The notes beneath the pieces are model-generated. The model was not told the DNA's origin and searched no databases. It saw only the letters and a program-made list of their open reading frames with translations. Both the position numbers and the translations under genes were made by a program. Positions 33,901 to 63,701 of a stretch of 64,000 bases of DNA are shown here, piece after piece (positions within the stretch are counted from its first letter, which is position 1; the number at the start of each line of letters is the position of its first letter). The stretch is from the sequence record EU863408; one strand, 5' to 3'. The DNA comes from Escherichia phage JSE.

Positions 33901-35043
33901 TTAACTATTGATCATATCAATGACGTTTTGTAGCTCTGATATGGATAGCGTTTCTGTATATCCATCTGGCATATCTTCTTTACTAACATAGAAACCTTTA
34001 TACTTTTTCTTTATTGCACATTCCATAGAAAGAGCATCATCACCGTTATCGTATTTTTTATAAAATGTCAACTCATGACGAAATATAGATTTTGAAGATT
34101 GGTTTTGTATTCTTTTTATTAATCTGTTGTTGGTTATACCAAATTTTATAGCAACCGCAACATCTTCTTTGTATAAAGTTTGTACATAAATGTATGCAGG
34201 TTTATTCCTCTTAAATCCATGATTGCTACACATAGGGCAACCGCTATTTTTTGATACGTAGTCTCCTAAGTTTGGCGTAAATTCATGTCCGCTACTACAA
34301 CGCATTACCAATTTTGTTTTTAGCATTCCTCTATACTCACCGCCAACAAAATCAACAAATGTATCACCTTTATCAATCGCCTTATCTGTTATTTCCTTTA
34401 CTACTTGCTCAGTTGACTTCTTGTTTTTACCTGAACATAGTTTACATCTAGATCCATTAACTAAAAACGAGTGACCGGATGCAGTATATTCATGTCCATT
34501 AGGGCATTTAACTAAGATATTTCTTTCATAAAAATCTTTATAATCAGACACATAGCCAATGACTTCGTGGTCTTTTTGGTTATTCCTCATCTCTGTTAGC
34601 AACTCTTCGCTATTCCAGCGTTTACCCTTAACGCAGAGACAACCATGACCTTGATAAAGATATATAAATTTCTTAGTAAAGTTTTTGTTGCAATCAGGAC
34701 AATGCATTAGTAATTCTGTCATTTGACCTGTATATCCTTTAGGAATATCGATCAATGTGTATTTTCCGCATATTGTCTTTAATGCATCATCTATTCTTTC
34801 TTTGGTCCAGCGTAAGCGACCAGTGCATTCATGACATTTTACACCCAGTCTAAGAGTATCTAAACTAAATATAGTTGACGTATGTCCTTTATCACATTTT
34901 AACTTAAATCTAGTATCCTTTGCGTTGGTGTATTCTCCGACTAGACCATACCATTCATAACAACATGGGATATGTTCTTTTACCTTCTCTAGATATACAC
35001 CGAACGGTCTAGGAACTGAATTGGGTTTTCTTTCTTTAGTCAT
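33901..35043 (-). CDS. Putative endonuclease: four tandem zinc-ribbon repeats plus C-terminal GIY-YIG-like (T5orf172-type) domain
   Basis: Repeated C-x2-C...G-H...C-x2-C units; C-terminal KPAYIYVQTLYKEDVAVAIKFGITNNRLIKRI; inserted between genes 2 and 3. Confidence 0.5.
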   Translation of the reverse strand: MTKERKPNSVPRPFGVYLEKVKEHIPCCYEWYGLVGEYTNAKDTRFKLKCDKGHTSTIFSLDTLRLGVKCHECTGRLRWTKERIDDALKTICGKYTLIDIPKGYTGQMTELLMHCPDCNKNFTKKFIYLYQGHGCLCVKGKRWNSEELLTEMRNNQKDHEVIGYVSDYKDFYERNILVKCPNGHEYTASGHSFLVNGSRCKLCSGKNKKSTEQVVKEITDKAIDKGDTFVDFVGGEYRGMLKTKLVMRCSSGHEFTPNLGDYVSKNSGCPMCSNHGFKRNKPAYIYVQTLYKEDVAVAIKFGITNNRLIKRIQNQSSKSIFRHELTFYKKYDNGDDALSMECAIKKKYKGFYVSKEDMPDGYTETLSISELQNVIDMINS

Positions 35044-35099
35044 ATTTTTATATCCTGTAAATTAAAGCGCCGTCACCAGCGGCGCTATTTTTATAATCA

Positions 35100-35922
35100 T
35101 TAAAACAATTTCCACACCTTACGAGCATCATATTTCTTGTCTTTGCTCATAAACTGGTAGGTCGGAAGATACACAACCGTGCTCCAATCTTTTGGTGCGA
35201 TCTCAATCAGTTTTGTTTGGATGTGTCCAGGCAAATATGCTTTGATCATGTGGTCTGCGCCTCTCATACCTTTAACATCACTCCATTTAATTTTTAAACG
35301 AGTTTTATTACTAAGAGTAGGTGTACTCGCGTATTGTCGCAACAACGCTTCTAAGAACTGCTGGCGAGCTTTAGGTGGCGCATAGTGCAAGTTCAAACCT
35401 AGCATAATCTCGTTTCCCGCTTTAGATGTACCAAATCCTAGACAGATAATCAAGGGGTATCGGTCAAAGAATGGCAAAGAATCCCGATATTTTGGGTTAT
35501 ACGCATAAGTATAGATCCGTCCCACTTGTGGTTTTACTACCTGATGACCTTTTACACCATCCTTGATGGTCTTCATAAACCACTCCTGTGATTTTTCTTT
35601 AGGACGACTCTTTGATACAGCACGCATAGACGCACGAAAATCATTAATCATCATCATTGCGCGTTGCTGCTTATTGAGACCCTTTGCACCTTTCCCTTTT
35701 AGTTTTTCAACTTCTATTGCTGTTTTAATTTCGCTGGCATAACGAGACATACTTTTAGTGAAAGTCGCATAGGCTATTCCCTTAGAATCTGCAAATGCTT
35801 TAGCTGTCATGCCTTTGGCTTTTGCTTTCGCAAATTCTACACCCAATTCGACCCACTGTTTAGACTTTCGTTTTTGGGGTAGACGGCTTTTCGTCTTCTG
35901 TGATTATTTCAAATACGCTCAT
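35100..35922 (-). CDS. 2: DNA end-protector protein gp2, with apparent +1 frame discontinuity near 35871..35879
   Basis: RBS-supported ATG at 35922 (AGAGGATAATATT) opens a 20-codon frame that ends at 35860; long basic ORF continues in +1 frame from 35903; corrected length ~273 aa equals T4 gp2. Confidence 0.6.
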
Positions 35923-45778: not shown

Positions 45779-46036
45779 ATGGCACGTCGTAAATTTACAG
45801 ATAATTGTGAAGCAATTCAGGTATCCCCTTGCGGTTGGGATGTGATCGCGAACGGTGAAAAGATCGGCGAGATCATCGATCATACTCATTCATCACTAGC
45901 CGATTACACCGATGAACTATGGGAGGGTATCAACTTCATGAATGACACTAAACGATTCAAGACTATCGACGAAGCTATCTATTTTGTGTATAATCCAACT
46001 TTCGGTATGTGGGGAACTAGAAAATGGCACGCGTAA
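45779..46036 (+). CDS. Hypothetical protein (85 aa), first gene of inserted early cassette
   Basis: GGAGGA RBS; no recognisable family. Confidence 0.5.
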   Translation: MARRKFTDNCEAIQVSPCGWDVIANGEKIGEIIDHTHSSLADYTDELWEGINFMNDTKRFKTIDEAIYFVYNPTFGMWGTRKWHA

Positions 46037-46356
46037 ATATTAAATTGCATTACACAATGAATAAAGCTAAGTTCCCAATGCAAAAGCATTACTATGGTCT
46101 ACGTGCACAAGATCCTAAACTCTATGGTACTCATTGGTTTTGTAAACATGATAACCAATGGCACACATACGAAGAAATGCATGAGATGATGAAACAGGGT
46201 ATTGAATTTAGTTATTCTAATTATGACCATCGTATAACTTGCATTCGAAAATTGAAACGATGGATTCGTAAGAATCCGCAATTTAAAAACTTTGTGTTCT
46301 TTATGTCTCATGTTTATTTGGGACATAGCGTTACCGTCACAGCAAAGGTTAAATAA
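46024..46356 (+). CDS. Hypothetical protein (110 aa, His/Trp/Tyr-rich)
   Basis: ORF overlapping neighbours by a few nt. Confidence 0.45.
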   Translation: MARVNIKLHYTMNKAKFPMQKHYYGLRAQDPKLYGTHWFCKHDNQWHTYEEMHEMMKQGIEFSYSNYDHRITCIRKLKRWIRKNPQFKNFVFFMSHVYLGHSVTVTAKVK

Positions 46357-47195: not shown

Positions 47196-47200
47196 TTATA

Positions 47201-47226
47201 AGCCGTCCTTGTGGGCGGCTTTTTTG
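47201..47226 (+). terminator. Rho-independent terminator after methyltransferase cassette
   Basis: GCCGUCC-UUGU-GGGCGGC + UUUUUUG. Confidence 0.75.
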
Positions 47227-47235
47227 TATGTATTT

Positions 47236-47243
47236 TATAAATA
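47236..47243 (+). promoter_or_regulatory. T4-type late promoter TATAAATA upstream of gene 9
   Basis: Exact TATAAATA 28 nt upstream of ATG 47271. Confidence 0.7.
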
Positions 47244-48125: not shown

Positions 48126-49924
48126 AACAATTAATTAATATCGGTAACGTTGTTGATGACGGTACAGGTGATTATCTAAGAAAAGGCGGTCAAAAGATTA
48201 ATGACAACTTTTCTGAACTTTATACTAAGCTGGGGGATGGTGATATCCCTCATGCATCCGGCGCGTGGAAAACTCACACACAACCAGTATTAAAACCAAA
48301 TTTTGGTGATGCATGGGCGATTAATACAACGAACAACGCTGTTTCTGTTGAATTGCCTAAAGGTGGAGTTGGTGATTATAACAAGACAATTAAACTTCGT
48401 GATGTTTGGCGCTCGTGGGCGTCTCATAACGTAACACTTAAGCCAGCACAAGGTGATACCATTAAGGGATCTCCAATCGACCGTGAGTTGTATAAAGATT
48501 TTATGGATGTTGAACTGGTTTATTGTGCGCCTGGACGCTGGGAATATATCGAAAACAAGCGAGTTGACACGATCACCACGTCTGACCTAAGCACAGTAGC
48601 TAAGGAAGTTTATATTGCCACAGAAGGGCAAACAGATTTCCCTAATGTATTTGGTTCTAACACATATAACACTCGAAATGTTGAAGTATATTATCGAGGA
48701 AACCTTTTATATTATGGCAAGTCTTTTAGTAATGACTCTAACTACGGTTCAATTGGTGAGGATGGATCACTTGTTGAACTTGATGGCAAAAGCATAAAAC
48801 TTCGTTTTCCTTGTTCGGCTGGGGATACCGTTCAAATTATTACATATATGGACGGAATTGCATCATTCCGATCTAGTTATATCACACACACAATTAGAGT
48901 GTATGATACCGGAATGACAGCACTAGAAACTATTCCTGGTGAAGTGTGGGTAGGTGATTTATCGACGAAAAAAGAATTTACCAATGCTGATTTGGGAGTT
49001 AGTAAACGTGATATAATTAACCCAAATTCATTTGAGTTATTAATAAATGGTACTCAAATGATTAAAGCTGGTGATGCTGATCTTCCTTCGTTTGTTTGTG
49101 AAGGTGCTGACGGAGAAACCGAAGAGAGTTGCGCACTTGCTGGCGGTCAGTGGGTACAGTCTGGAGAAGATTATTCACTGGTATTTGATGAGAATAGCAT
49201 TGTAACAGGGATTAAATTAGCTAAAGCGTTGGACAATAGAGATACTATAACAATTCGTTGGTTTAATAACGATATCGGAACTCTATTAGAATGGGATGGT
49301 GTCGGCGGAATTAAAGAAAAAGCAGACAAGATTTATCTCAATAACGAAGACGAAGTTAATTTAACAAAACAAATTGAATATACCGACTTCCAGAATCCTA
49401 GCCAGAAAAACACTCGTCCGGCGGAAGAGTATTCAGGTCGAATTATGGATATATATGCACTGTTTGATATTTTCCATCCGATCGGCACGATATACGAAAA
49501 CGCACATAACCCAGCTAACCCAGCGACATATATGGGTATTGGTATCTGGGTTCGGTATGCGGAAGGAGAATTTCTTGCTGGTTGGTCTTCCGATGCCAGC
49601 GACCAGAATTTTGCATTAAACAATAACGATCTTGATATTCATGGACAACCTACACACACCGCTGGTGGTACTGGTGGTGAAGTTGCCTATCAAATCAAGA
49701 AAGATATGATTCCTGAATTACAATCCAGCGATCGTGTTTTGGTGAAAGACGATACAGGGTCAATTATCATTGGTGGTTGTCAAGTTGACCCTGATGCGGC
49801 AGGTCCAGCGTTTACGAAATATAGAGAGGATATCGTAAAAGTTAATTCTGGAAATGCTGATCCATCAATGATGGGTATTCTTCCTCCATATCGCACCGTT
49901 CATCGCTGGTTAAGGGTAGGTTAA
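48122..49924 (+). CDS. 10: Baseplate wedge protein gp10
   Basis: 600 aa; synteny and size (T4 gp10 602 aa). Confidence 0.85.
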   Translation: MKQLINIGNVVDDGTGDYLRKGGQKINDNFSELYTKLGDGDIPHASGAWKTHTQPVLKPNFGDAWAINTTNNAVSVELPKGGVGDYNKTIKLRDVWRSWASHNVTLKPAQGDTIKGSPIDRELYKDFMDVELVYCAPGRWEYIENKRVDTITTSDLSTVAKEVYIATEGQTDFPNVFGSNTYNTRNVEVYYRGNLLYYGKSFSNDSNYGSIGEDGSLVELDGKSIKLRFPCSAGDTVQIITYMDGIASFRSSYITHTIRVYDTGMTALETIPGEVWVGDLSTKKEFTNADLGVSKRDIINPNSFELLINGTQMIKAGDADLPSFVCEGADGETEESCALAGGQWVQSGEDYSLVFDENSIVTGIKLAKALDNRDTITIRWFNNDIGTLLEWDGVGGIKEKADKIYLNNEDEVNLTKQIEYTDFQNPSQKNTRPAEEYSGRIMDIYALFDIFHPIGTIYENAHNPANPATYMGIGIWVRYAEGEFLAGWSSDASDQNFALNNNDLDIHGQPTHTAGGTGGEVAYQIKKDMIPELQSSDRVLVKDDTGSIIIGGCQVDPDAAGPAFTKYREDIVKVNSGNADPSMMGILPPYRTVHRWLRVG

Positions 49925-49925
49925 T

Positions 49926-50570
49926 ATGATTTCTAAAACACGTTCTAAAGCAAGCGTATTTTCTAGCGACGCAGCATTCATTTCATACGATCCGGGGTCT
50001 AAAGACCCCATTATTGGTGACATTCGCCCAATTGGTGGATTAAACGTAGACCAATCTCGCAAAGGTTCTTTTATTAACAACGTACAATCAGCCATTGATG
50101 ATTTGTATAGCATTTCTATGCTTAATGTCGGTGATGTATTGGTAACTACAAATTCAACTCCACCGGAAGCGGCGGGACAAATAGAAACTCTTTCTTTCAC
50201 TGGAACGGTAACAAATAAACACGATCCAGCCGCGAAAAAAGTTGTGATTGAAGTTTTGGGTTATCCATTTGTTGTTAATGTTGGAACATCGAATGTTGCA
50301 TTATGCGAAATGGTCACAACAAAATTTACTGAATTGAAAGACAAAAGCATCCTGTTCTCTAAAGTTCAGAGGAAAGGCACTGGCAACGATCAAATAGAGA
50401 TTCAGTATATTGATTCAAACGCACACGAAGCAACGGTCGTAGAAAAATATGGTATTAGCGTTCGTGGGGAAATAAATTCCCCTGCTCGTTATGGTTATGG
50501 TGCATGGTCCAGATTGGGAACGGAAGAAAAATTTGATTCAACACTATTTTATTTTAAGCGTATTGCGTAA
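49926..50570 (+). CDS. 11: Baseplate wedge/short tail fiber attachment protein gp11
   Basis: 214 aa; synteny and size (T4 gp11 219 aa). Confidence 0.8.
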   Translation: MISKTRSKASVFSSDAAFISYDPGSKDPIIGDIRPIGGLNVDQSRKGSFINNVQSAIDDLYSISMLNVGDVLVTTNSTPPEAAGQIETLSFTGTVTNKHDPAAKKVVIEVLGYPFVVNVGTSNVALCEMVTTKFTELKDKSILFSKVQRKGTGNDQIEIQYIDSNAHEATVVEKYGISVRGEINSPARYGYGAWSRLGTEEKFDSTLFYFKRIA

Positions 50571-50581
50571 GGTGTAAAATT

Positions 50582-51985
50582 ATGAATAACACTATTAATC
50601 ACGTAAAAGACGATGCACAGTATGTTAAGTTTGACCCTACCGGAAATTGGCCTAGCAATATAAAAAACGTACAAGCGGCATTAGCCGCTATTCAGGGATT
50701 TGCTATTGCAGGTCTTCCAACGGCAACCGAAGAAACAGCGGGTATTGCTGAAATTGCTACTCAACAAGAAGTAGATGATGGGTTGGATGGAACTAAAATT
50801 GTTACCCCCAAAACATTGGCTGTTAAGCTGTCAAGACCGGACGCAACAAAACTTGTCAAAGGGATCACTCGCTATGCTAATAACGATGAAGCTATGGGCG
50901 ATACTCCAAATATTGCAATTGGTCCTGATACATTAACCCATGTATTCGAGAATAAGAAAGCAACGGAAACCGTACAGGGTACAATTAAAATCTGTTCTAT
51001 GGATGCGGCAAAAATCGGTAGTGATGACACTATGGCGGTCACGCCTAAAAAGATGCACGCTGCTATTGCTCAGATTGTTCCTGGGTTGATTCCAGAACAA
51101 AACACGGCGACCGAGTCCCGTGAGGGTTTAGTTCGACTGGCGACAAGCCAACAAACGCTTGCTGGTACTATCAGAGAAGGATTTGCCGTTAGCCCATATG
51201 CATTTTCCAACGCAAGAGCCAATGAAAATCAGGCGGGTACTGTTAAAATTGCGTCATCCCAACAAATGATTGACGGTAATGACAACACAGTAGTAGTATC
51301 AGCACAAAAATTTGCGAACACTAAAGCAACCACTGGACAATTCGGTGTTGTTAAGCTAACAGATAACCCAGGATCAGGCGAGGCAAACACAGCACTGTCG
51401 GCAAACGCTCGTGTATTGCCTCTAAGTGGTGGTGTCGTTACTGGTGATGTGTATCGTCATAGTGGAGGCGACGGAAACCAGTTTATCATTAAAAATGAAC
51501 TGGATGGTCTTTGTATGCCTATTGGTGGCATCATTCTTACAGCATTTAACAGTTTCGACCACGCACAATTCAAAATCTGCAACGGTCAATGGTTAAATAA
51601 ACACCAATATCCAGTATTATTTTCACGAATCGGTTTCACTTACGGCGGAGATGGCGGAGACAACTTTGCTCTACCCGATATGCGAGGGCTTGTTGCTAGA
51701 GGATGCGACCACGGTCGAGGACTAGACCCAGGTCGTGGATTTGGTACTTATCAAGACGACACCATGCAACATATGACAGGTAACTTCCCTGTAGCCAACC
51801 GTTGGCGAGGTTGGACTGGTGGTGTATTTGCCATCACAGGCGGTCAATGGAGCACGAACTATAAAAACGGTGGTGGTGATGATTGGGGTAGTATTGTTAA
51901 CTTTGACAGCGCAAGACAGGTTAGAACGTCTGGCGAAACTCGCGTTAAAAGCCTTGCATTAAACTACATGATAAGGGTACAATAA
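50582..51985 (+). CDS. 12: Short tail fiber protein gp12
   Basis: 467 aa; N-terminal alanine-rich repeats, C-terminal His-containing head region; synteny. Confidence 0.8.
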   Translation: MNNTINHVKDDAQYVKFDPTGNWPSNIKNVQAALAAIQGFAIAGLPTATEETAGIAEIATQQEVDDGLDGTKIVTPKTLAVKLSRPDATKLVKGITRYANNDEAMGDTPNIAIGPDTLTHVFENKKATETVQGTIKICSMDAAKIGSDDTMAVTPKKMHAAIAQIVPGLIPEQNTATESREGLVRLATSQQTLAGTIREGFAVSPYAFSNARANENQAGTVKIASSQQMIDGNDNTVVVSAQKFANTKATTGQFGVVKLTDNPGSGEANTALSANARVLPLSGGVVTGDVYRHSGGDGNQFIIKNELDGLCMPIGGIILTAFNSFDHAQFKICNGQWLNKHQYPVLFSRIGFTYGGDGGDNFALPDMRGLVARGCDHGRGLDPGRGFGTYQDDTMQHMTGNFPVANRWRGWTGGVFAITGGQWSTNYKNGGGDDWGSIVNFDSARQVRTSGETRVKSLALNYMIRVQ

Positions 51986-53754
51986 TGATCGAACAGTTAA
52001 ACATTCGAAAGATCCCTAACGTCGATGGTGTCCCTGGAGAGGGACAGCATTCTATTAGCTGGATTAAAAATGGTGAATGTCTAAGCGCAGCAACCACAGA
52101 AACAGGACACGAGGGGACGCTTAACCGCGCCCCTTATGCGATTCAAGAAAATATTGTTCGTCTGGATGAAAATTCTAAGACAACGGTAACAAAAGTTAAC
52201 GAAGTTGTTACAGCAGTTAATGATATTAAAACTACTTTAGGCGCGGTTGCTGATGGTAGTATTATTGATATTGTCAATCAAACTATTGCAAAGGTTGATT
52301 CTGTAGAAGAAAATTTAGGAGAAACTTCAAGGATATTACAAACCACAGTAGATGAACTGGCAGAGACAGGAAAGAAAATTGGTGTTCGTCCGGCAGCAGA
52401 TCCGAGTACACGAACAATATATGATGATATTTCTTTCATCAAACAAGAATTGGGCGCTTTCCCTAACTTCAATATCAACGGTTCTCCAGATCCGGGTAGT
52501 TCCGGTTCCGGTATCAAATATCGAGTTATCCAGAATACGGAAGCATTAAACAACCACGGTCAGCGAATCCGCCAACTAGAAAACGACTGGCAAGATTCTG
52601 ACGTTGGAGAGCTAACAAAACAAGTTAACAAAATGCGAAGCGAGCTAGGCGATACATCACTAGCAACACAGGACAATGTTTATCTTCGTCTTCGCACAAA
52701 TACTCGCAATATCGCTAGTATATCAAACGAAGTTCAGGAAGTAAAGAAAGCGATTCTATTTGAATCAATTCCTGATATCGGGACTAAAGTAACTAAGCTA
52801 CAATCTGATTATACACAGCTTAATGATGAAGTCAACGGCGTTGACGCTGGTATCCGTCCTCGTTTAACTCTTCTGGAAAATAATATTGGCAATCCTCAAG
52901 CCGCTGGAAGTATTGATTATCGATTGACTAATCAAGAACGGGAATTTGTAGATCTTAAATCTGTTGTCGGTGTTAGTGGTGCTGATGGTCTACGTGGTGA
53001 GGTTGCACGAATCTCTAACACAGTTGGTACTGATAGTGAGCGTCATACTATCGCAGGTCGTCTAAAAATTGTCGAAAACACACAGGGACGACTAGAAGCT
53101 AGCGTACAGGATATCGAGCAAATGATCGGCGATCGAGATTCCGGTCTAACCGCCGGGGTTATTAAGCTGTCAAGCGACATGTACGGCAATCCAGAAGGAA
53201 GCACGCAGCTTGAACAAGATGGGATCGTGAAAACTGTTAAGGAATTGAGCACATCAAATGCAAGCAAGGTAACAGACGTTCCTGATGATGGTTTCCATTA
53301 TCTACGTAAGCACGGGGAATGGGTTCAGGTCGCATGGGCGGCTGGTGCATTTAAAAACACCGCTCAGATTGATATTACTCTCGACGGACAAGATCAATAC
53401 AAAGGAATCCCGCTAAACGATATGACCGAAGAAGTTCCTGCGCGTGGAATGGTTAAGAGCGAATCTCTTGTTACGGTTAACGACAAAGGCTTATTCCGTT
53501 GTGATTTCCGTTGTTCTGTAAATGCGGCACATAACGCTACTTTCGTAGTCGGTATTGCTAAAAATGGTCTGATTGTACATGAGGTACGAAATGGTCATTA
53601 TGGACCTGATGATTTAATTAGCTATTCTACCAGTGCTTTCCTAAATATTGAAAAGGGCGACCGGATCGATATTCGCATTAAGGGCGTATCCGAAGAAGCA
53701 TTAGCGCAACAGCTACAAATTAAAGAGTTCCTCTTTGGAATTTCTCCGGTATAA
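51985..53754 (+). CDS. wac: Fibritin (whisker) Wac with internal foldon-like motif and extra C-terminal domain
   Basis: Long coiled-coil; DDGFHYLRKHGEWVQV (53284..53331) resembles T4 foldon DGQAYVRKDGEWVLL; ~140 aa follow the foldon. Confidence 0.75.
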   Translation: MIEQLNIRKIPNVDGVPGEGQHSISWIKNGECLSAATTETGHEGTLNRAPYAIQENIVRLDENSKTTVTKVNEVVTAVNDIKTTLGAVADGSIIDIVNQTIAKVDSVEENLGETSRILQTTVDELAETGKKIGVRPAADPSTRTIYDDISFIKQELGAFPNFNINGSPDPGSSGSGIKYRVIQNTEALNNHGQRIRQLENDWQDSDVGELTKQVNKMRSELGDTSLATQDNVYLRLRTNTRNIASISNEVQEVKKAILFESIPDIGTKVTKLQSDYTQLNDEVNGVDAGIRPRLTLLENNIGNPQAAGSIDYRLTNQEREFVDLKSVVGVSGADGLRGEVARISNTVGTDSERHTIAGRLKIVENTQGRLEASVQDIEQMIGDRDSGLTAGVIKLSSDMYGNPEGSTQLEQDGIVKTVKELSTSNASKVTDVPDDGFHYLRKHGEWVQVAWAAGAFKNTAQIDITLDGQDQYKGIPLNDMTEEVPARGMVKSESLVTVNDKGLFRCDFRCSVNAAHNATFVVGIAKNGLIVHEVRNGHYGPDDLISYSTSAFLNIEKGDRIDIRIKGVSEEALAQQLQIKEFLFGISPV

Positions 53755-53762
53755 GAAATTAA

Positions 53763-53785
53763 AGGGGCGTTAAGCCCCTTTTTCG
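53763..53785 (+). terminator. Terminator after wac (AGGGGC-GUUAA-GCCCCU + UUUUU)
   Basis: Perfect 6 bp stem and U run. Confidence 0.7.
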
Positions 53786-53800
53786 TTTATAGGTGATATT

Positions 53801-54733
53801 ATGTCAGGATATGTAACCAATAACCCAAGAGAATTAAAAGACGCTATTCTGCGTCGTTTAGGCGCACCAGTAATTAACGTAGAAGTAACAGAAGACCAGA
53901 TTTACGATTGTATTCAGAGAGCATTAGAACTCTATGGGGAATATCATTTCGATGGTGTGAATAAAGGATATAAAGTATTTCGTGTTAGTGCAGAGCAAGC
54001 GCAACACGGGGTATTTGATTTAAGCGATTCTGGAGTATTCGCAGTAACTAAAATAATTCGAACAAACGTAGGTAGCGCGGCTACGATGGATGGTACTGCC
54101 GTTTATCCGTGGTTTACTGACTTTCTGTTGGGTTTAGCGGGTGTAAATGGCGGTTTAGGATCTGGCTGTAGTAAATTTTATGGACCAAATGCAATGGGCG
54201 GTGATCTAGGATATTTCGAACAGCTTATGAGCTATCGAGCCACTATGCAAAATATGCTTAATCCGCTGCCAGATTATTGGTATAATAGCGCAAACGGACA
54301 ACTTAAGATAACAGGAAACTTCCGAGAAGGTGATCTCATTGTTGTTGAATTATATGTTAAAAGTTATGTTGATGTACCTGATATGATCGGCGCGGTTGCT
54401 GGTTATGCTCATGCGGGAGGATGTTCTACCGCTGGCGGGATTAGCGCCGTTTATGATAACCCAACTGCTGGTTTAAGCGGGATTGTTGCTGGCATGGGAC
54501 CGATCCGTGATAACAAGCAGGGCGCATATAATAACCGTTGGGTTAAAGACTGCGCGACTGCGTTTACTCGTGAGCTATGGGGGCAGATCTTAGCTAAACA
54601 TCAAGGGTTGCAATTACCAGGTGGTGTCACTGTTGATGGTGTCAGAATCATCGAAGAAGCACGCGCGGATATTGAGAAATTGCGACAAGAACTACTTGAC
54701 TTAGATCCTCCGTTCGGCATCCTCATGATTTGA
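53801..54733 (+). CDS. 13: Neck protein gp13
   Basis: 310 aa; synteny and size (T4 gp13 309 aa). Confidence 0.8.
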
Positions 54734-55510: not shown

Positions 55511-55550
55511 TAAATACTTGTATTGATATAATATAAGGATCTAATGACTT

Positions 55551-56306
55551 ATGAAAAACTATTATCTATACGAAATAAAGAACAATATAAATGGTAAGAT
55601 ATATGTTGGCATTCGTGGGTATGATGGTGACATAAGTCAAGATCCTTATATGGGTAGTGGATTGACTCTTAAGAGGTCTATTAAAAAGAACGGGATAGAA
55701 AACTTCACAAAAACAATTCTCAAAACGTTTGACTCATGGAAAGAGGCAAGGAAAGCAGAAAGAGAAATAGTTACAGAGGAATTTGTAAAAAGAGAAGATA
55801 CCTATAATGTTTCGGTTGGTGGACAAGGTGGAAATACTCACGCTGGGATGAGCGAAGAACGAAGAAAACTTGCAAGCGAAAGACACGCAGAAGCAAACCG
55901 AAATAGAGTATGGAAGCAAGAATCTAGAGATAAGGTTAGCGCAAGATTCAAAGGTCATAAGCTATCACAGAAGCAGATAGACGCGCTAAAGAAGGCAAAC
56001 ACAGGAAGAAAGTTCACAGAAGAACACAAGTTCAAAATAGGTAAAACGTGGCGAGGAAAGAAACGACCAGATATAGGAGAGAAGGTTGCGGCAAAATTAA
56101 CAGGGAGAAAACTACCCCCAGAACATGTGGCAGCAATAACGCAAAATACACCGAGAGGAAAACAACACTTTAGGGCAAAAAGATTCTTCATCGACGATAT
56201 GGAATTTTATATTTTGAGTGATGCAGCTAAAATGTTTGGTATAAGTTATAAAACGGTTAAAGCTAGACTTCTCTCAGATAAGTTTCCTACATGGAGATAT
56301 GAATAA
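55551..56306 (+). CDS. Free-standing GIY-YIG homing endonuclease (Seg-like) inserted between genes 14 and 15
   Basis: N-terminal YYLYEIKNNINGKIYVGIRG GIY-YIG motif; basic repeat region; C-terminal HTH; stop overlaps gene 15 start (TAAATG). Confidence 0.85.
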   Translation: MKNYYLYEIKNNINGKIYVGIRGYDGDISQDPYMGSGLTLKRSIKKNGIENFTKTILKTFDSWKEARKAEREIVTEEFVKREDTYNVSVGGQGGNTHAGMSEERRKLASERHAEANRNRVWKQESRDKVSARFKGHKLSQKQIDALKKANTGRKFTEEHKFKIGKTWRGKKRPDIGEKVAAKLTGRKLPPEHVAAITQNTPRGKQHFRAKRFFIDDMEFYILSDAAKMFGISYKTVKARLLSDKFPTWRYE

Positions 56307-62135: not shown

Positions 62136-63701
62136 ATGTTTAGTAGATTAAAAATGCTTGCGCGTTGGGCTGATTTTGACAACGACAAATACGAAGAACA
62201 AATTAAAGATAAAGCAGAGTCTATCGCCGCACCTAAAAACAATGATGGTGCTACGGAAGTAGAAATTAATGATAATTCACCTGCTAGCGCGTGGAACTCT
62301 ATTACCCAGCAATTTTACAGCACCGACCAGAAAATCAGCACAACTAAGCAATTAGTTAACACATATCGCGGTTTGATGAATAACCATGAAGTCGAAAACG
62401 CTGTACAAAATATCGTTAACGATGCGATTGTATTTGAAGAAGGTCATGAAGTTGTTTCATTAAATCTTGAGGCGACTGGCTTTAGTGAATCTGTAAAAGA
62501 GCGCATTCATGAAGAATTTAAAGATCTTTTAAACACTATCCAGTTTGATAAGCGTGGTCAGGATATGTTCCGTCGCTGGTATGTCGATTCGCGTATTTTC
62601 TTCCATAAAATCATCGGCAAAAATCCAAAAGATGGTATCGTAGAATTACGCCAGCTTGACCCACGAAATCTTGAATACGTTCGAGAGATCATTACAGAAG
62701 ACACACCGGAAGGTAAAATTTATAAAGCAACGAAAGAATATTTCATTTACACTGTAGGCAATAGCTCTTATTGCGCAGGTGGTCAAGTATTCTCTCCTAA
62801 TAGTCGCGTTAAAATCCCGCGTAGTGCTATTACATACGCTCACAGCGGCTTGATGGATTGCGATGATAAATATATCATTGGTTATTTGCATCGGGCTGTT
62901 AAGCCAGCAAACCAGCTTAAATTGTTGGAAGACGCAATGGTCGTTTATCGTATCACGCGTGCACCGGAACGCCGAGTGTTCTTTATTGATACCGGAAACA
63001 TGAACAACCGCAAGGCTGCACAGCACATGAACTCAGTGGCACAGTCTTTTAAAAACCGCGTTGTTTATGATGCATCGACTGGTAAACTTAAAAACCAGCA
63101 AGCAAATCTATCAATGACAGAGGACTACTGGTTACAGCGTCGAGATGGTAAAGCAATCACCGACGTTACTACTTTACCGGGTGCATCCGGTATGAGTGAT
63201 ATCGATGATATTCGCTACTTTAACCGTAAATTGTATGAAGCGTTGCGTGTGCCATTGTCACGTAGCAATCTCTCCGATGCTAATATGGTGATCGGTGGTG
63301 ATGGTTCAGAAATTACTCGCGATGAGTTGGAATTTTCGAAATTCATTAGAACTCTGCAATCACAGTTTTCGGAAGTATTGCGCGATCCTCTGAAATATAA
63401 TCTGATTCTCAAAAATGTAATTACGGAAGACGATTGGGATCGTGAAATAAATAATATCAAGGTGGTTTTCCATCGGGACTCTTACTATACAGAAGTTAAA
63501 GACGCGGAAATTTTAGAACGTCGAATCGGTCTAATCGAACGTATTACACCTTACATTGGTAAATATTTCTCTAACCAGACAGTGATGCGTGACATTCTGA
63601 AATATACCGATGACCAGATGGACACCGAGAAGAAACAGATCGAAGAAGAAGCGAACGATCCGCGCTTTAAACAAACTCCCGATGAAATAGAGGATTTTTA
63701 A
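62136..63701 (+). CDS. 20: Portal vertex protein gp20
   Basis: 521 aa; synteny and size (T4 gp20 524 aa); AATAAATA late-promoter-like box at 62073..62080. Confidence 0.9.
   Translation: MFSRLKMLARWADFDNDKYEEQIKDKAESIAAPKNNDGATEVEINDNSPASAWNSITQQFYSTDQKISTTKQLVNTYRGLMNNHEVENAVQNIVNDAIVFEEGHEVVSLNLEATGFSESVKERIHEEFKDLLNTIQFDKRGQDMFRRWYVDSRIFFHKIIGKNPKDGIVELRQLDPRNLEYVREIITEDTPEGKIYKATKEYFIYTVGNSSYCAGGQVFSPNSRVKIPRSAITYAHSGLMDCDDKYIIGYLHRAVKPANQLKLLEDAMVVYRITRAPERRVFFIDTGNMNNRKAAQHMNSVAQSFKNRVVYDASTGKLKNQQANLSMTEDYWLQRRDGKAITDVTTLPGASGMSDIDDIRYFNRKLYEALRVPLSRSNLSDANMVIGGDGSEITRDELEFSKFIRTLQSQFSEVLRDPLKYNLILKNVITEDDWDREINNIKVVFHRDSYYTEVKDAEILERRIGLIERITPYIGKYFSNQTVMRDILKYTDDQMDTEKKQIEEEANDPRFKQTPDEIEDF

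Follow-up and report, generated by a model that had tools for sequence, protein, structure and literature searches.

The RB49-type fibritin of Escherichia phage JSE retains an internal foldon and carries a predicted C1q/TNF-like head

The wac locus

We analyzed a 64,000-nucleotide stretch of the genome of Escherichia phage JSE (EU863408; hereafter, the window), in which the fibritin gene, wac, lies between gene 12 and gene 13, the position expected of a fibritin gene. The local gene order, gp11-gp12-wac-gp13-gp14, is collinear with that of phage RB49. The following features were identified:

50582 to 51985, plus strand: gp12, short tail fiber, upstream neighbor of wac (Pfam Collar domain)
51985 to 53754, plus strand: wac, coding sequence of fibritin (neck whisker/collar fiber), 589 aa, stop codon within the coordinates (ORF list)
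53761 to 53781, plus strand: terminator-like GC hairpin, then a T run, 7 nt past the wac stop (sequence reading and terminator scan)
53801 to 54733, plus strand: gp13, neck protein, downstream neighbor of wac (collinear with RB49 gene 13)

Reading of the sequence places the TAA stop codon of gp12 over the ATG of wac (TAATG). No T4 late promoter (TATAAATA) was found directly upstream of wac, the nearest being at 47236, before gp9. The wac product matches PHROG 1056, "fibritin neck whisker" (E 2e-180, aa 1-581), and HMMER analysis of PDB sequences matched aa 7-430 to the T4 fibritin structures 2bsg and 3j2o (E 5e-52). The gene is 99.0% identical at the nucleotide level to that encoding the fibritin of phage phiS, and all of the phage records that match it (56/56) are Krischvirus-like. 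The gene thus belongs to an RB49-like (Krischvirus) phage of E. coli and its product is an RB49-type fibritin which, by homology, would form a parallel homotrimer on the virion neck; in T4, gp13 is the binding partner of the fibritin N terminus (PMC12929629). We regard the fibritin identity of the wac product and the domain architecture described below as close to certain.

Domain organization of Wac

Wac was divided into four segments:

51985 to 52134, plus strand: N-terminal neck-attachment domain, aa 1-50 (homology to T4 N-terminal fragments)
52135 to 53256, plus strand: segmented coiled-coil shaft, aa 51-424 (aligns collinearly with that of T4 fibritin)
53257 to 53337, plus strand: internal foldon, aa 425-451, with the hairpin part at aa ~430-449 (T4 foldon alignments and AlphaFold2 hairpin)
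53338 to 53751, plus strand: C-terminal head, aa 452-589, predicted ten-strand C1q/TNF-like jelly roll (AlphaFold2 and Foldseek)

Three parts of Wac, namely the N-terminal domain, the coiled-coil shaft, and the foldon hairpin, are homologous to those of T4 fibritin (PDB ID: 2bsg, 1aa0, and 1rfo). Wac aa 7-84 match the T4 N-terminal fragments 1ox3 and 2ibl (E ~2e-14), and the N-terminal domain (aa 1-50) has a mean pairwise identity of 76.8% in the family and a dN/dS of 0.05. The alignment with T4 fibritin extends over Wac aa 7-430 (T4 residues 6-435). Conservation is lowest at aa 368-424 (mean pairwise identity 57.5%), and the Pfam family Fibritin_C spans aa 368-450 (E 1.5e-24; score 86 bits, cut-off 21), starting at nt 53086. 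The order of parts in Wac is a neck-binding N-terminal domain, a segmented coiled coil, a T4-type foldon hairpin, and a predicted C1q/TNF-like jelly-roll head (aa 452-589).

The motif DDGFHYLRKHGEWVQV occupies Wac aa 434-449 (nt 53284-53331) and is followed by exactly 140 residues before the stop, so that the interval 53284-53754 singled out in the original prediction spans the motif to the stop codon. That prediction described a 589-aa wac product with a foldon-like motif followed by ~140 residues, which is borne out by the ORF and motif coordinates, and a T4 fibritin of 487 aa with a terminal foldon, in agreement with the PDB chains. The T4 foldon stands at the extreme C terminus, and the chain ends a few residues past it; in place of its last residues (STFL), Wac has a short link leading to a head of 138 aa, which starts ~4 residues past the foldon hairpin.

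The proposed likeness of the motif to the T4 foldon also withstood scrutiny, through the Fibritin_C match, the T4 foldon alignments, and the AlphaFold2 hairpin. HMMER aligns Wac aa 425-449 with T4 foldon residues 456-480 of the 487-aa chain, and a family profile recognizes the 27-aa foldon as an isolated peptide in the PDB (1rfo and 4ncv, conditional E ~3e-7). Counted on these alignments, Wac and T4 are identical at 10/27 foldon positions and at 10/17 in the core P-x-D-G-x-x-Y-x-R-K-x-G-E-W-V. AlphaFold2 places a hairpin on YLRK/EWVQ, with strands at aa 439-442 and 445-448, at a pLDDT of only ~60 for the foldon part of the model. The hairpin has the lowest entropy in the Wac C-terminal region, aa 439-458 (hairpin, linker, and first head strand) form its most conserved stretch, and the foldon segment has a dN/dS of 0.09. 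Serratia phages PS2 and 4S, whose C-terminal region is only 21 to 25% identical, still have the foldon Y, R, and W; a distant relative (P0019) has a degenerate foldon (no GEW) and retains the head. Judged by its sequence, the Wac motif is a genuine homologous foldon and not a chance likeness, combining the conserved residues of the foldon core with a predicted β-hairpin.

Predicted fold of the C-terminal head

A monomeric AlphaFold2 model has a mean pLDDT of 84.8, with values of ~90 or more over the head, which is modeled as an all-β domain of ten strands, in keeping with the β-rich tail noted originally. Foldseek analysis of the head against the PDB identifies ExsFA/BxpB, C1QL1/3, Cbln1, collagen X NC1, 4-1BBL, RANKL, and EDA, with scores for the C1q/TNF-like matches of E ~1e-6, probability 1.00, and TM 0.6 to 0.76. 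Further PDB matches are the receptor-binding protein (RBP) of phage 1358 and the phi812 knob, and Foldseek also pairs the head with collagen-repeat/C1q phage fiber proteins. The Pfam family BclA_C (PF18573) is matched below its cut-off of 38 bits, both by Wac (17.4 bits, E 0.004) and by a homolog (P0018; 27.9 bits, E 2.4e-6). Because the head falls under the gathering score, its membership of the fold rests on the predicted structure. On this basis, the Wac head very probably has a C1q/TNF-like fold, and the model supports the view, anticipated as an appended distal domain, that the residues past the foldon form a separate, folded, globular jelly-roll head on an otherwise T4-like fibritin.

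Sequence searches confine the head to one fibritin lineage. A search of PDB sequences with a foldon-plus-head profile returned foldon peptides as the only matches, and the head has no match in NCBIfam. A word-indexed search with two 110-aa head fragments found fibritins only, a profile built from seven distant heads recovered no further families, and an IMG/VR search yielded three loci, all fibritins. Exhaustive HMMER searching of 1.84 billion representatives returned only the Krischvirus cluster, a 591-aa fibritin (P0020), and a repeat protein (P0021). The repeat protein was dismissed as spurious, as its score sums low-identity matches over six repeats. An Ig-like fold was also considered, from PDB matches of a head-only profile that share a DxGxYxC-like motif and are insignificant (E 0.04 to 0.4); it was rejected on account of the size of the domain, its ten strands, and the outcome of the Foldseek search.

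Comparison with known fibritins and trimeric heads

RB49-type fibritin was reportedly described by Letarov et al. in 2005. RB49 gpwac (NP_891719) is, like Wac, 589 aa long, lies between genes 12 and 13, and has the same domain order with no indels. The two C-terminal modules are homologous, with 76 to 77% identity over all 139 aa of the head and 81% in the foldon. The two genes are nonetheless different alleles, at ~76% nucleotide identity and a dS of ~1.4, whereas the flanking genes are 97 to 100% identical. The class itself is already in print as "RB49-type" (Letarov 2005, 2013; PMC3797505, PMC9569957). There the RB49 C-terminal moiety is called "unrelated" to that of T4 (PMC9569957), and RB49 is grouped among fibritins with alien sequences in place of the C-terminal domain (PMC3797505); unlike these descriptions, our analysis finds the foldon retained in Wac and gives the extra part a predicted fold. 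JS98-type fibritins, which have two foldon-like motifs with a coiled-coil spacer between them (PMC3797505), provide a precedent for a foldon away from the chain end. Past the internal foldon, JS98 has more coiled coil and a second foldon, whereas Wac has a globular, predicted jelly-roll head.

Outside the fibritins, BclA and ExsFA/BxpB of the Bacillus exosporium, C1QL, cerebellin, and collagen X NC1 have a jelly roll of ~140 aa at the end of a trimeric stalk, as predicted for Wac. The stalk of Wac is made of an α-helical coiled coil and a foldon and not of collagen. With sequence similarity under the family thresholds, the resemblance of the Wac head is one of fold and not of family membership. 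C1q-type heads are the trimerization nucleus in collagen X, C1q, and BclA.

Among phages, the lactococcal phage 1358 RBP and the phi812 central spike knob are related to the Wac head at the same fold level. Both of these determine host binding from the baseplate or tail tip, whereas the Wac head is on a neck whisker and lacks RBP-like hypervariability. The tail needle of Sf6/HS1 carries a TNF-like knob where P22 has a small needle tip, and a role of this knob in host specificity was tested and not found (PMC3741392). The Sf6/HS1 needle and Wac follow a common logic, in which the small tip of a trimeric coiled-coil fiber is replaced or extended by a knob in some lineages, but the fiber is a different one and the knob belongs to a different family; Sf6/HS1 knobs are absent from the best 50 Foldseek PDB matches of the Wac head.

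Selection on the head and its exchange

The head has a dN/dS of 0.17, about twice that of the shaft (0.09). Its mean pairwise identity is 73.9%, near that of the neck-binding domain. No hypervariable apex loops were seen in the head (entropy 0.71 at the top, 0.82 at the bottom, and 0.59 in the strands, with loops assigned to top or bottom from the canonical C1q/TNF strand order and not from coordinates). Among the same phages gp37 is far more diverse than the Wac head, at only 34 to 63% identity. Being under purifying selection and having no hypervariable tip, the head is unlike a diversifying receptor-binding tip, of which we saw neither the hypervariable loops nor diversifying selection; a single exchange within the genus was seen.

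Identity profiles of the locus define two tracts, neither of which has an assigned strand:

48400 to 53725: cassette divergent from RB49, comprising the C-terminal part of gp10, gp11, gp12, and wac (300-nt bins)
53425 to 53724: head tract exchanged between Krischvirus lineages (60-nt bins)

The 5.3-kb cassette has 61 to 82% nucleotide identity to RB49 between flanks of 97 to 100%, with a boundary at the end of wac. In phage ECD7, wac is RB49-like up to ~53365-53425 and then 98 to 100% identical to the window. ECD7 therefore combines an RB49-type shaft and foldon with a distal head of the window type, and its gp34, gp35, and gp36 are 96 to 100% RB49-like, a combination which implies that head alleles 18% apart in protein function with the same tail-fiber proteins. 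In this case no fine-scale covariation of the head allele with gp34, gp35, or gp36 was found. As read from these alignments, the distal head has been swapped between Krischvirus lineages independently of the tail-fiber genes.

Possible roles of the head

Only the fibritins of T4 and JS98 fold via the small foldon, and that of RB49 requires expanded C-terminal domain sequences (PMC3797505). Since the foldon alone reportedly does not suffice for folding in RB49, the main trimerization element probably lies at the C terminus, genuine though the foldon is. The original prediction had allowed that alignment might reveal the motif as coincidental and the true trimerization element as C-terminal; the former did not hold and the latter probably does (PMC3797505). 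We consider it probable that the Wac head is this main element. The foldon and head would jointly form a C-terminal nucleus that sets the three chains in register and zips up the coiled coil, a step for which C1q-type heads on collagen stalks provide a model.

In T4, the C-terminal part of fibritin touches the knee of the long tail fiber (PMC3797505). The putative trimeric knob at the distal whisker tip of Wac could be the contact module for this knee, aiding fiber attachment and keeping the fibers retracted, as in T4, and its partner could be the enlarged gp36 of the same phages. RB49-type gp36 is 496 aa long, with a C-terminal half that is full-length only in Krischvirus and in T4-like phages of Serratia and Cronobacter, and RB49-type Wac heads also occur in some Serratia phages with such a gp36 (PS2, 4S, and WSPA). 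The gp36 of phiS, whose wac is 99% identical to that of the window, has 496 aa and is 86% identical to the RB49 protein (the gp36 of JSE itself lies outside the 64 kb). Because these Serratia phages seem to be the closest relatives that were found, phylogeny confounds the deep association between head type and gp36 type. The purifying selection on the head and its lack of a hypervariable tip are consistent with a conserved contact between proteins. A trimerization nucleus combined with a distal docking knob for the long tail fibers is, on balance, the most likely role of the head; taken by itself, long-tail-fiber docking as its putative ligand function is a tentative proposal, which we hold at somewhat less than even chances.

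Other points run counter to docking. The ECD7 case shows no fine-scale covariation of head and gp36, the retained Fibritin_C coiled coil and foldon could hold the fiber-binding site, freeing the head for another job, and wac shares its divergent cassette with the receptor-binding short fiber gp12.

We also considered that the knob could be an accessory lectin-like adhesin or sensor at the whisker tip, reversibly binding a host glycan or a small environmental ligand and so bringing the virion near cells or triggering release of the long tail fibers. The original prediction had raised a carbohydrate- or receptor-binding or sensing role, and the part that stands is the compatibility of the fold with ligand binding: it is common to the phage 1358 RBP (with bound GlcNAc), the phi812 central spike knob, and ligand-binding C1q/TNF domains. 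The exchange of the distal head independently of gp34-36, the position of wac at the close of the divergent cassette with gp10C, gp11, and gp12, and the twofold higher dN/dS of head over shaft would also suit such a role. Letarov and Krisch suggested adhesin-like roles for other enlarged fibritin C termini, and a 2026 preprint reports k-mers that predict LPS-sugar specificity in gp12 and the adjoining fibritin gene. However, a dN/dS of 0.17 denotes strong purifying selection, variability is not concentrated in the presumed apex loops, the contrast with gp37 is marked, and the head occurs in one fibritin lineage only. Linkage to gp12 can account for both the k-mer signal and the cassette, and T4 fibritin has no known host-binding role (PMC3741392). 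We judge an adhesin or sensor role rather unlikely, and it is doubtful that exchange of the distal head within the gp10C-gp11-gp12-wac adsorption cassette reflects selection on lectin or sensor binding by the knob. Alternatively, the head might be a pure folding and stability cap without a ligand, which has superseded the autonomous function of the foldon and left it as a structural neck. C1q-type heads seed trimers in collagen X, C1q, and BclA, one shaft and one tail-fiber set accept different head alleles, the decayed foldon of P0019 is accompanied by a retained head, and folding of RB49 fibritin needs the expanded C terminus (PMC3797505). But the T4 whisker tip touches the tail fiber, so that a partnerless knob would leave known wac functions without a carrier, and the head is about as conserved as the neck-binding domain (73.9% against 76.8%), more than a cap seems to need; we consider a pure cap quite unlikely.

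The two remaining readings concern the foldon and the fate of the head. That the foldon-like motif is a chance likeness or a functionless relic, leaving the C-terminal domain as the sole part that counts, could be argued from the reported insufficiency of the foldon for RB49 fibritin folding (PMC3797505) and from its degeneration in one distant relative, P0019. Yet the Fibritin_C match is continuous through the motif, the core identities with T4 and the predicted hairpin are those of a foldon, the segment is the most conserved of the C-terminal region, and it persists in Serratia phages at 21 to 25% identity, so that this reading is already largely refuted and highly improbable. The C-terminal domain could also be an intramolecular chaperone that is cut off after assembly, as in endosialidase-type tail spikes and RB49 gp37. 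The requirement for the domain in folding of RB49 fibritin (PMC3797505) and the self-cleaving C-terminal chaperone domains in gp37 of the same phages (PMC9569957) would agree with this, whereas Wac has no match to Peptidase_S74 or another protease family in Pfam (E up to 10), the predicted C1q/TNF-like jelly roll is not the S74 chaperone fold, and the conserved stretch that runs unbroken from the hairpin through the linker into the first head strand contains no recognizable cleavage motif. We give cleavage of the head almost no credence.

Implications for fibritin biology

The foldon-plus-head architecture is not new, having been known as the RB49-type fibritin since 2005, and because wac encodes a fibritin that is annotated and of a known type, the gene as it stands adds little. 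Our analysis contributes modest refinements, namely the fold assignment of the head and the retained foldon. The latter, under strong constraint, corrects the literature shorthand of an "unrelated" RB49 C terminus, and a C1q/TNF-like fold would explain the capacity of the head to nucleate trimer folding. Protein engineers who rely on foldon trimerization tags may also take an interest in a natural foldon directly before a C1q-like head. The head is still being exchanged within the genus, which tempers the published notion of fibritin C-terminal modules that have not moved since ancient times. If it is true that the knob binds host glycans or an environmental ligand, the "whisker sensor" of T4 would become a tractable ligand-receptor problem.

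Identity and genomic context of wac

By sequence comparison, the JSE ORF product is a fibritin of the already described RB49 type. Residues 1–581 of Wac match PHROG 1056 ('fibritin neck whisker') on a 582-position profile (E 2e-180), and residues 7–430 match the T4 fibritin structures 2bsg and 3j2o at E about 5e-52. The gene is 99.0% identical in DNA to the fibritin gene annotated in Escherichia phage phiS, its neighbors are gp11, gp12 (Collar domain), gp13, gp14 (T4 neck protein) and gp15, and the 56 phage records that match it are all Krischvirus (RB49-like). The relevant features are:

51985–53754, plus strand: wac (fibritin) ORF, 589 aa
53284–53331, plus strand: foldon motif DDGFHYLRKHGEWVQV, aa 434–449, with 140 residues C-terminal to it
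47200–47221: terminator-like hairpin, upstream of the late-promoter consensus
47236 (in the stretch 47200–47243): T4 late-promoter consensus TATAAATA, after the hairpin
53761–53781: second strong hairpin with a T run, 7 nt past the wac stop

Together, the two hairpins and the promoter consensus suggest that gp9-gp10-gp11-gp12-wac form one late transcription unit; no copy of TATAAATA stands immediately ahead of wac or of gp13. The gp12 stop and wac start share one base (TAATG, window 51983–51987), which suggests that the two genes are translationally coupled.

An internal foldon homologous to that of T4

The interval of interest runs from the foldon motif through the stop codon of wac. The original prediction of an internal foldon with ~140 further residues held, and the possibility that the motif is coincidental is contradicted by the fibritin alignments. 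Pfam Fibritin_C matches Wac residues 368–450 with E 1.5e-24 (86 bits against a cut-off of 21) over profile positions 2–91 of 93; because the profile is covered nearly end to end, homology with T4 is unbroken across the final coiled-coil segment and on through the foldon. HMMER aligned residues 425–449 with the T4 foldon (residues 456–480 of the 487-aa chain), and a PDB search using a profile of the family C-terminal region recovered the isolated 27-residue foldon peptides 1rfo and 4ncv as well as foldon fusions. Counted from the alignments, 10 of 27 positions are identical to the T4 foldon, and 10 of 17 in the core (P, D, G, Y, R, K, G, E, W, V). The AlphaFold2 monomer model places a hairpin at YLRK (439–442) and EWVQ (445–448), in the same place as the T4 hairpin, at a confidence of only about 60. 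Across 13 homologues (52–95% identity), mean pairwise identity is 77.5% in the foldon, comparable to the neck-binding N-terminus (76.8%), versus 57.5% in the coil before the foldon. The least variable part of the C-terminal region is residues 439–458, comprising the hairpin, the first strand of the head and the four residues that join them, and the foldon dN/dS against RB49 is 0.09. We conclude from the Pfam match, the T4 and PDB alignments, the predicted hairpin and the conservation that the JSE foldon is genuine. In contrast to T4 fibritin, it is internal and is followed by a head, with homology through the last coil and foldon kept.

Serratia phages PS2 and 4S encode fibritins (595 and 594 aa, respectively) of the same architecture, in which the Y..R....W core is retained at an identity of only 21–25% in this region. 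P0019, a 588-aa metagenomic fibritin (Logan ERR11042216, locus L011, 5001–6767) that is 31% identical overall, has a decayed foldon (QDGSYYIRDNVLTPMTV, no GEW) and a retained head domain; it is a wac orthologue in a locus with T4-like gp8–gp18 synteny. A 72-aa ORF lies between gp12 and wac at this locus. Separately, Wac residues 417–454 weakly match PHROG 26654 (function not known; E 0.004, profile positions 317–354 of 360), a hint that a second family of phage proteins carries a foldon-like motif at its C-terminus.

Predicted fold of the head

Outside this fibritin lineage, the head is nearly invisible to sequence methods. A tblastn search with the head gave matches in the 56 Krischvirus records only, and an IMG/VR search gave three loci, all fibritin. 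HMMER, run exhaustively against 1.84 billion representatives, returned only fibritins and one repeat protein, the latter judged probably spurious, and a profile built from distant heads gave nothing further. The sole family-level hint was Pfam BclA_C (E 0.004 for JSE Wac and 2.4e-6 for the homologue P0018, both under the gathering score). The four closest homologues (P0003–P0006) bear the precomputed Pfam accession PF28231 (PF28231.1), which may be a recently curated family over part of this fibritin type.

An AlphaFold2 model from a 13-sequence alignment (mean pLDDT 84.8, pTM 0.77, head about 90 or more) contains ten β-strands and one short helix. Foldseek against the PDB gave 232 matches at E ≤ 0.001, the best being C1q/TNF-like trimeric jelly rolls: ExsFA and BxpB, which are BclA-type exosporium proteins, C1QL1/3, cerebellin-1, collagen X NC1, 4-1BBL, RANKL, EDA and TWEAK. 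The list also holds phage knobs, namely the receptor-binding protein of lactococcal phage 1358, the central spike knob of phi812 and a tail protein of cyanophage A4; these matches lie at E about 1e-6 and TM 0.6–0.76 on the target. Top matches among predicted viral structures include a 594-aa protein, the length of the Serratia phage 4S fibritin, many phage fiber proteins annotated as collagen-repeat or C1q, and short proteins from other phages of the T4-like group. From these models we conclude that Wac residues 452–589 probably form a C1q/TNF-like head, in keeping with the distal domain originally proposed from the sequence. An Ig-domain fold was ruled out by domain size and strand count, the head-only profile matches to it being insignificant.

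Two small stand-alone proteins of other T4-like phages resemble the JSE foldon-plus-head model in predicted structure (TM 0.63–0.77): BFVD entries A0A1J0MHA5, 159 aa, from Klebsiella phage KPV15, and A0A192YAF6, the 141-aa 'fibritin' of Morganella phage MP1. They may be related to the T4-like phage knob homologues of PMC3741392.

Allelic divergence and exchange of the head

In two stretches, gp53 to mid-gp10 and gp13 onward, the window is 97–100% identical to RB49. Regions that differ from RB49 include:

~48400–53725: divergent allele cassette (gp10 C-terminal part, gp11, gp12, wac), 61–82% identical to RB49, its right edge at the wac end
55551–56306, plus strand: 251-aa ORF between gp14 and gp15 with an I-TevI-type DNA-binding domain (E 1.4e-7)
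33901–35043, minus strand: 380-aa ORF with CapR-homology, treble-clef zinc-finger and weak T5orf172 domains

The 251-aa ORF also has sub-threshold SegE GIY-YIG and NUMOD3 matches and so resembles a homing endonuclease of the seg type. RB49 lacks the insert at this site: only 26 nt separate its gp14 and gp15, and the blastn alignment breaks at 55518/56322. About 1.2 kb around the 380-aa ORF is likewise missing from the equivalent position in RB49 (gap 33903–35110 versus RB49 63224–63232), and the adjoining 35110–35709 is only 75–79% identical. The short stretch 45907–46206, which lies between gp8 and the gene for a DNA methyltransferase, is only 76% identical to RB49 in surroundings of 95–100%.

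Given its low identity and a dS of about 1.4 against RB49, wac belongs to an old divergent allele block along with the short tail fiber. Purifying selection acts on all Wac regions, dN/dS in the head (0.17) being about twice that of the shaft (0.09), and no concentration of variability was seen in the head loops placed apical by canonical strand order. In the Krischvirus phage ECD7, Wac residues 1–451 are 98–100% identical to RB49, whereas the head matches the window at 94% identity and RB49 at 82%. The DNA switches between 53365 and 53425 (residues about 461–481) and is 98–100% window-like onward to 53724; identity figures give the same mosaic pattern in ELT4, E26, PHB13, 011D4, JEP8, ELT3 and Makalu_002. 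These alignments place a recombination breakpoint within the head: in the ECD7 group, shaft and foldon are of the RB49 type and the distal head is window-type. Since ECD7 gp34, gp35 and gp36 are 96–100% RB49-like, head alleles travel independently of the tail-fiber genes, and head and gp36 do not covary on a fine scale in the ECD7 mosaic.

The RB49-type gp36 is 496 aa (RB49, L004 22157–23647; phiS, L005 7001–8491), and the phiS and RB49 versions are 94% identical over the first quarter of the protein and 79% over the last. Full-length matches to the C-terminal half of this gp36 are confined to Krischvirus, Serratia phages (PS2, Muldoon, 4S and SP1, with WSPA and 92A1 via a full-length search) and Cronobacter VP8. 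Some of these Serratia and Cronobacter T4-like phages also have the RB49-type Wac head, a co-occurrence that is confounded by phylogeny.

Proposed role and relation to published work

The analysis demonstrates the identity of the gene, the boundaries of its domains, the homology of the foldon, the predicted fold of the head and their conservation. Beyond this, we propose that foldon and head would jointly act as the C-terminal registration and trimerization nucleus, in line with the role of C1q-type heads on collagen stalks and with the report that RB49 fibritin depends for folding on its expanded C-terminal domain (PMC3797505). In T4, the C-terminal part of fibritin contacts the knee of the long tail fiber; by analogy, the trimeric knob at the tip of the whisker may be the contact module for it here, a reading suggested by the 496-aa gp36, the narrow range of its C-terminal half and the partial overlap with the RB49-type head.

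The main rival is that the head is an accessory adhesin or sensor knob, to which the fold analogies, the head exchange event and the linkage with gp12 all point; however, the diversification typical of receptor-binding proteins is absent. The carbohydrate- or receptor-binding or sensing role raised in the original prediction is a candidate only weakly favored, and we think it unlikely that the whisker-tip head is a lectin or sensor knob. A second rival takes the head as a pure folding cap, while a vestigial foldon and a C-terminal domain that is a cleaved chaperone are both essentially excluded.

The architecture of RB49-type fibritin is already known. Letarov and Krisch (PMC3797505) described eight forms of the fibritin C-terminus, the RB49 type among them, with folding through a small foldon in T4 and JS98 fibritins only and two foldon motifs, one internal, in the JS98 type; Golomidova et al. 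(PMC9569957) called the C-terminal moiety of RB49-like Wac unrelated to that of T4. To these accounts we add that the foldon is retained and constrained, which the 2005 primary paper may have noted first, and that the extra module probably has a C1q/TNF-like fold. The exchange of heads in the ECD7 group tempers the published view that the C-terminal modules of fibritins are no longer mobile.
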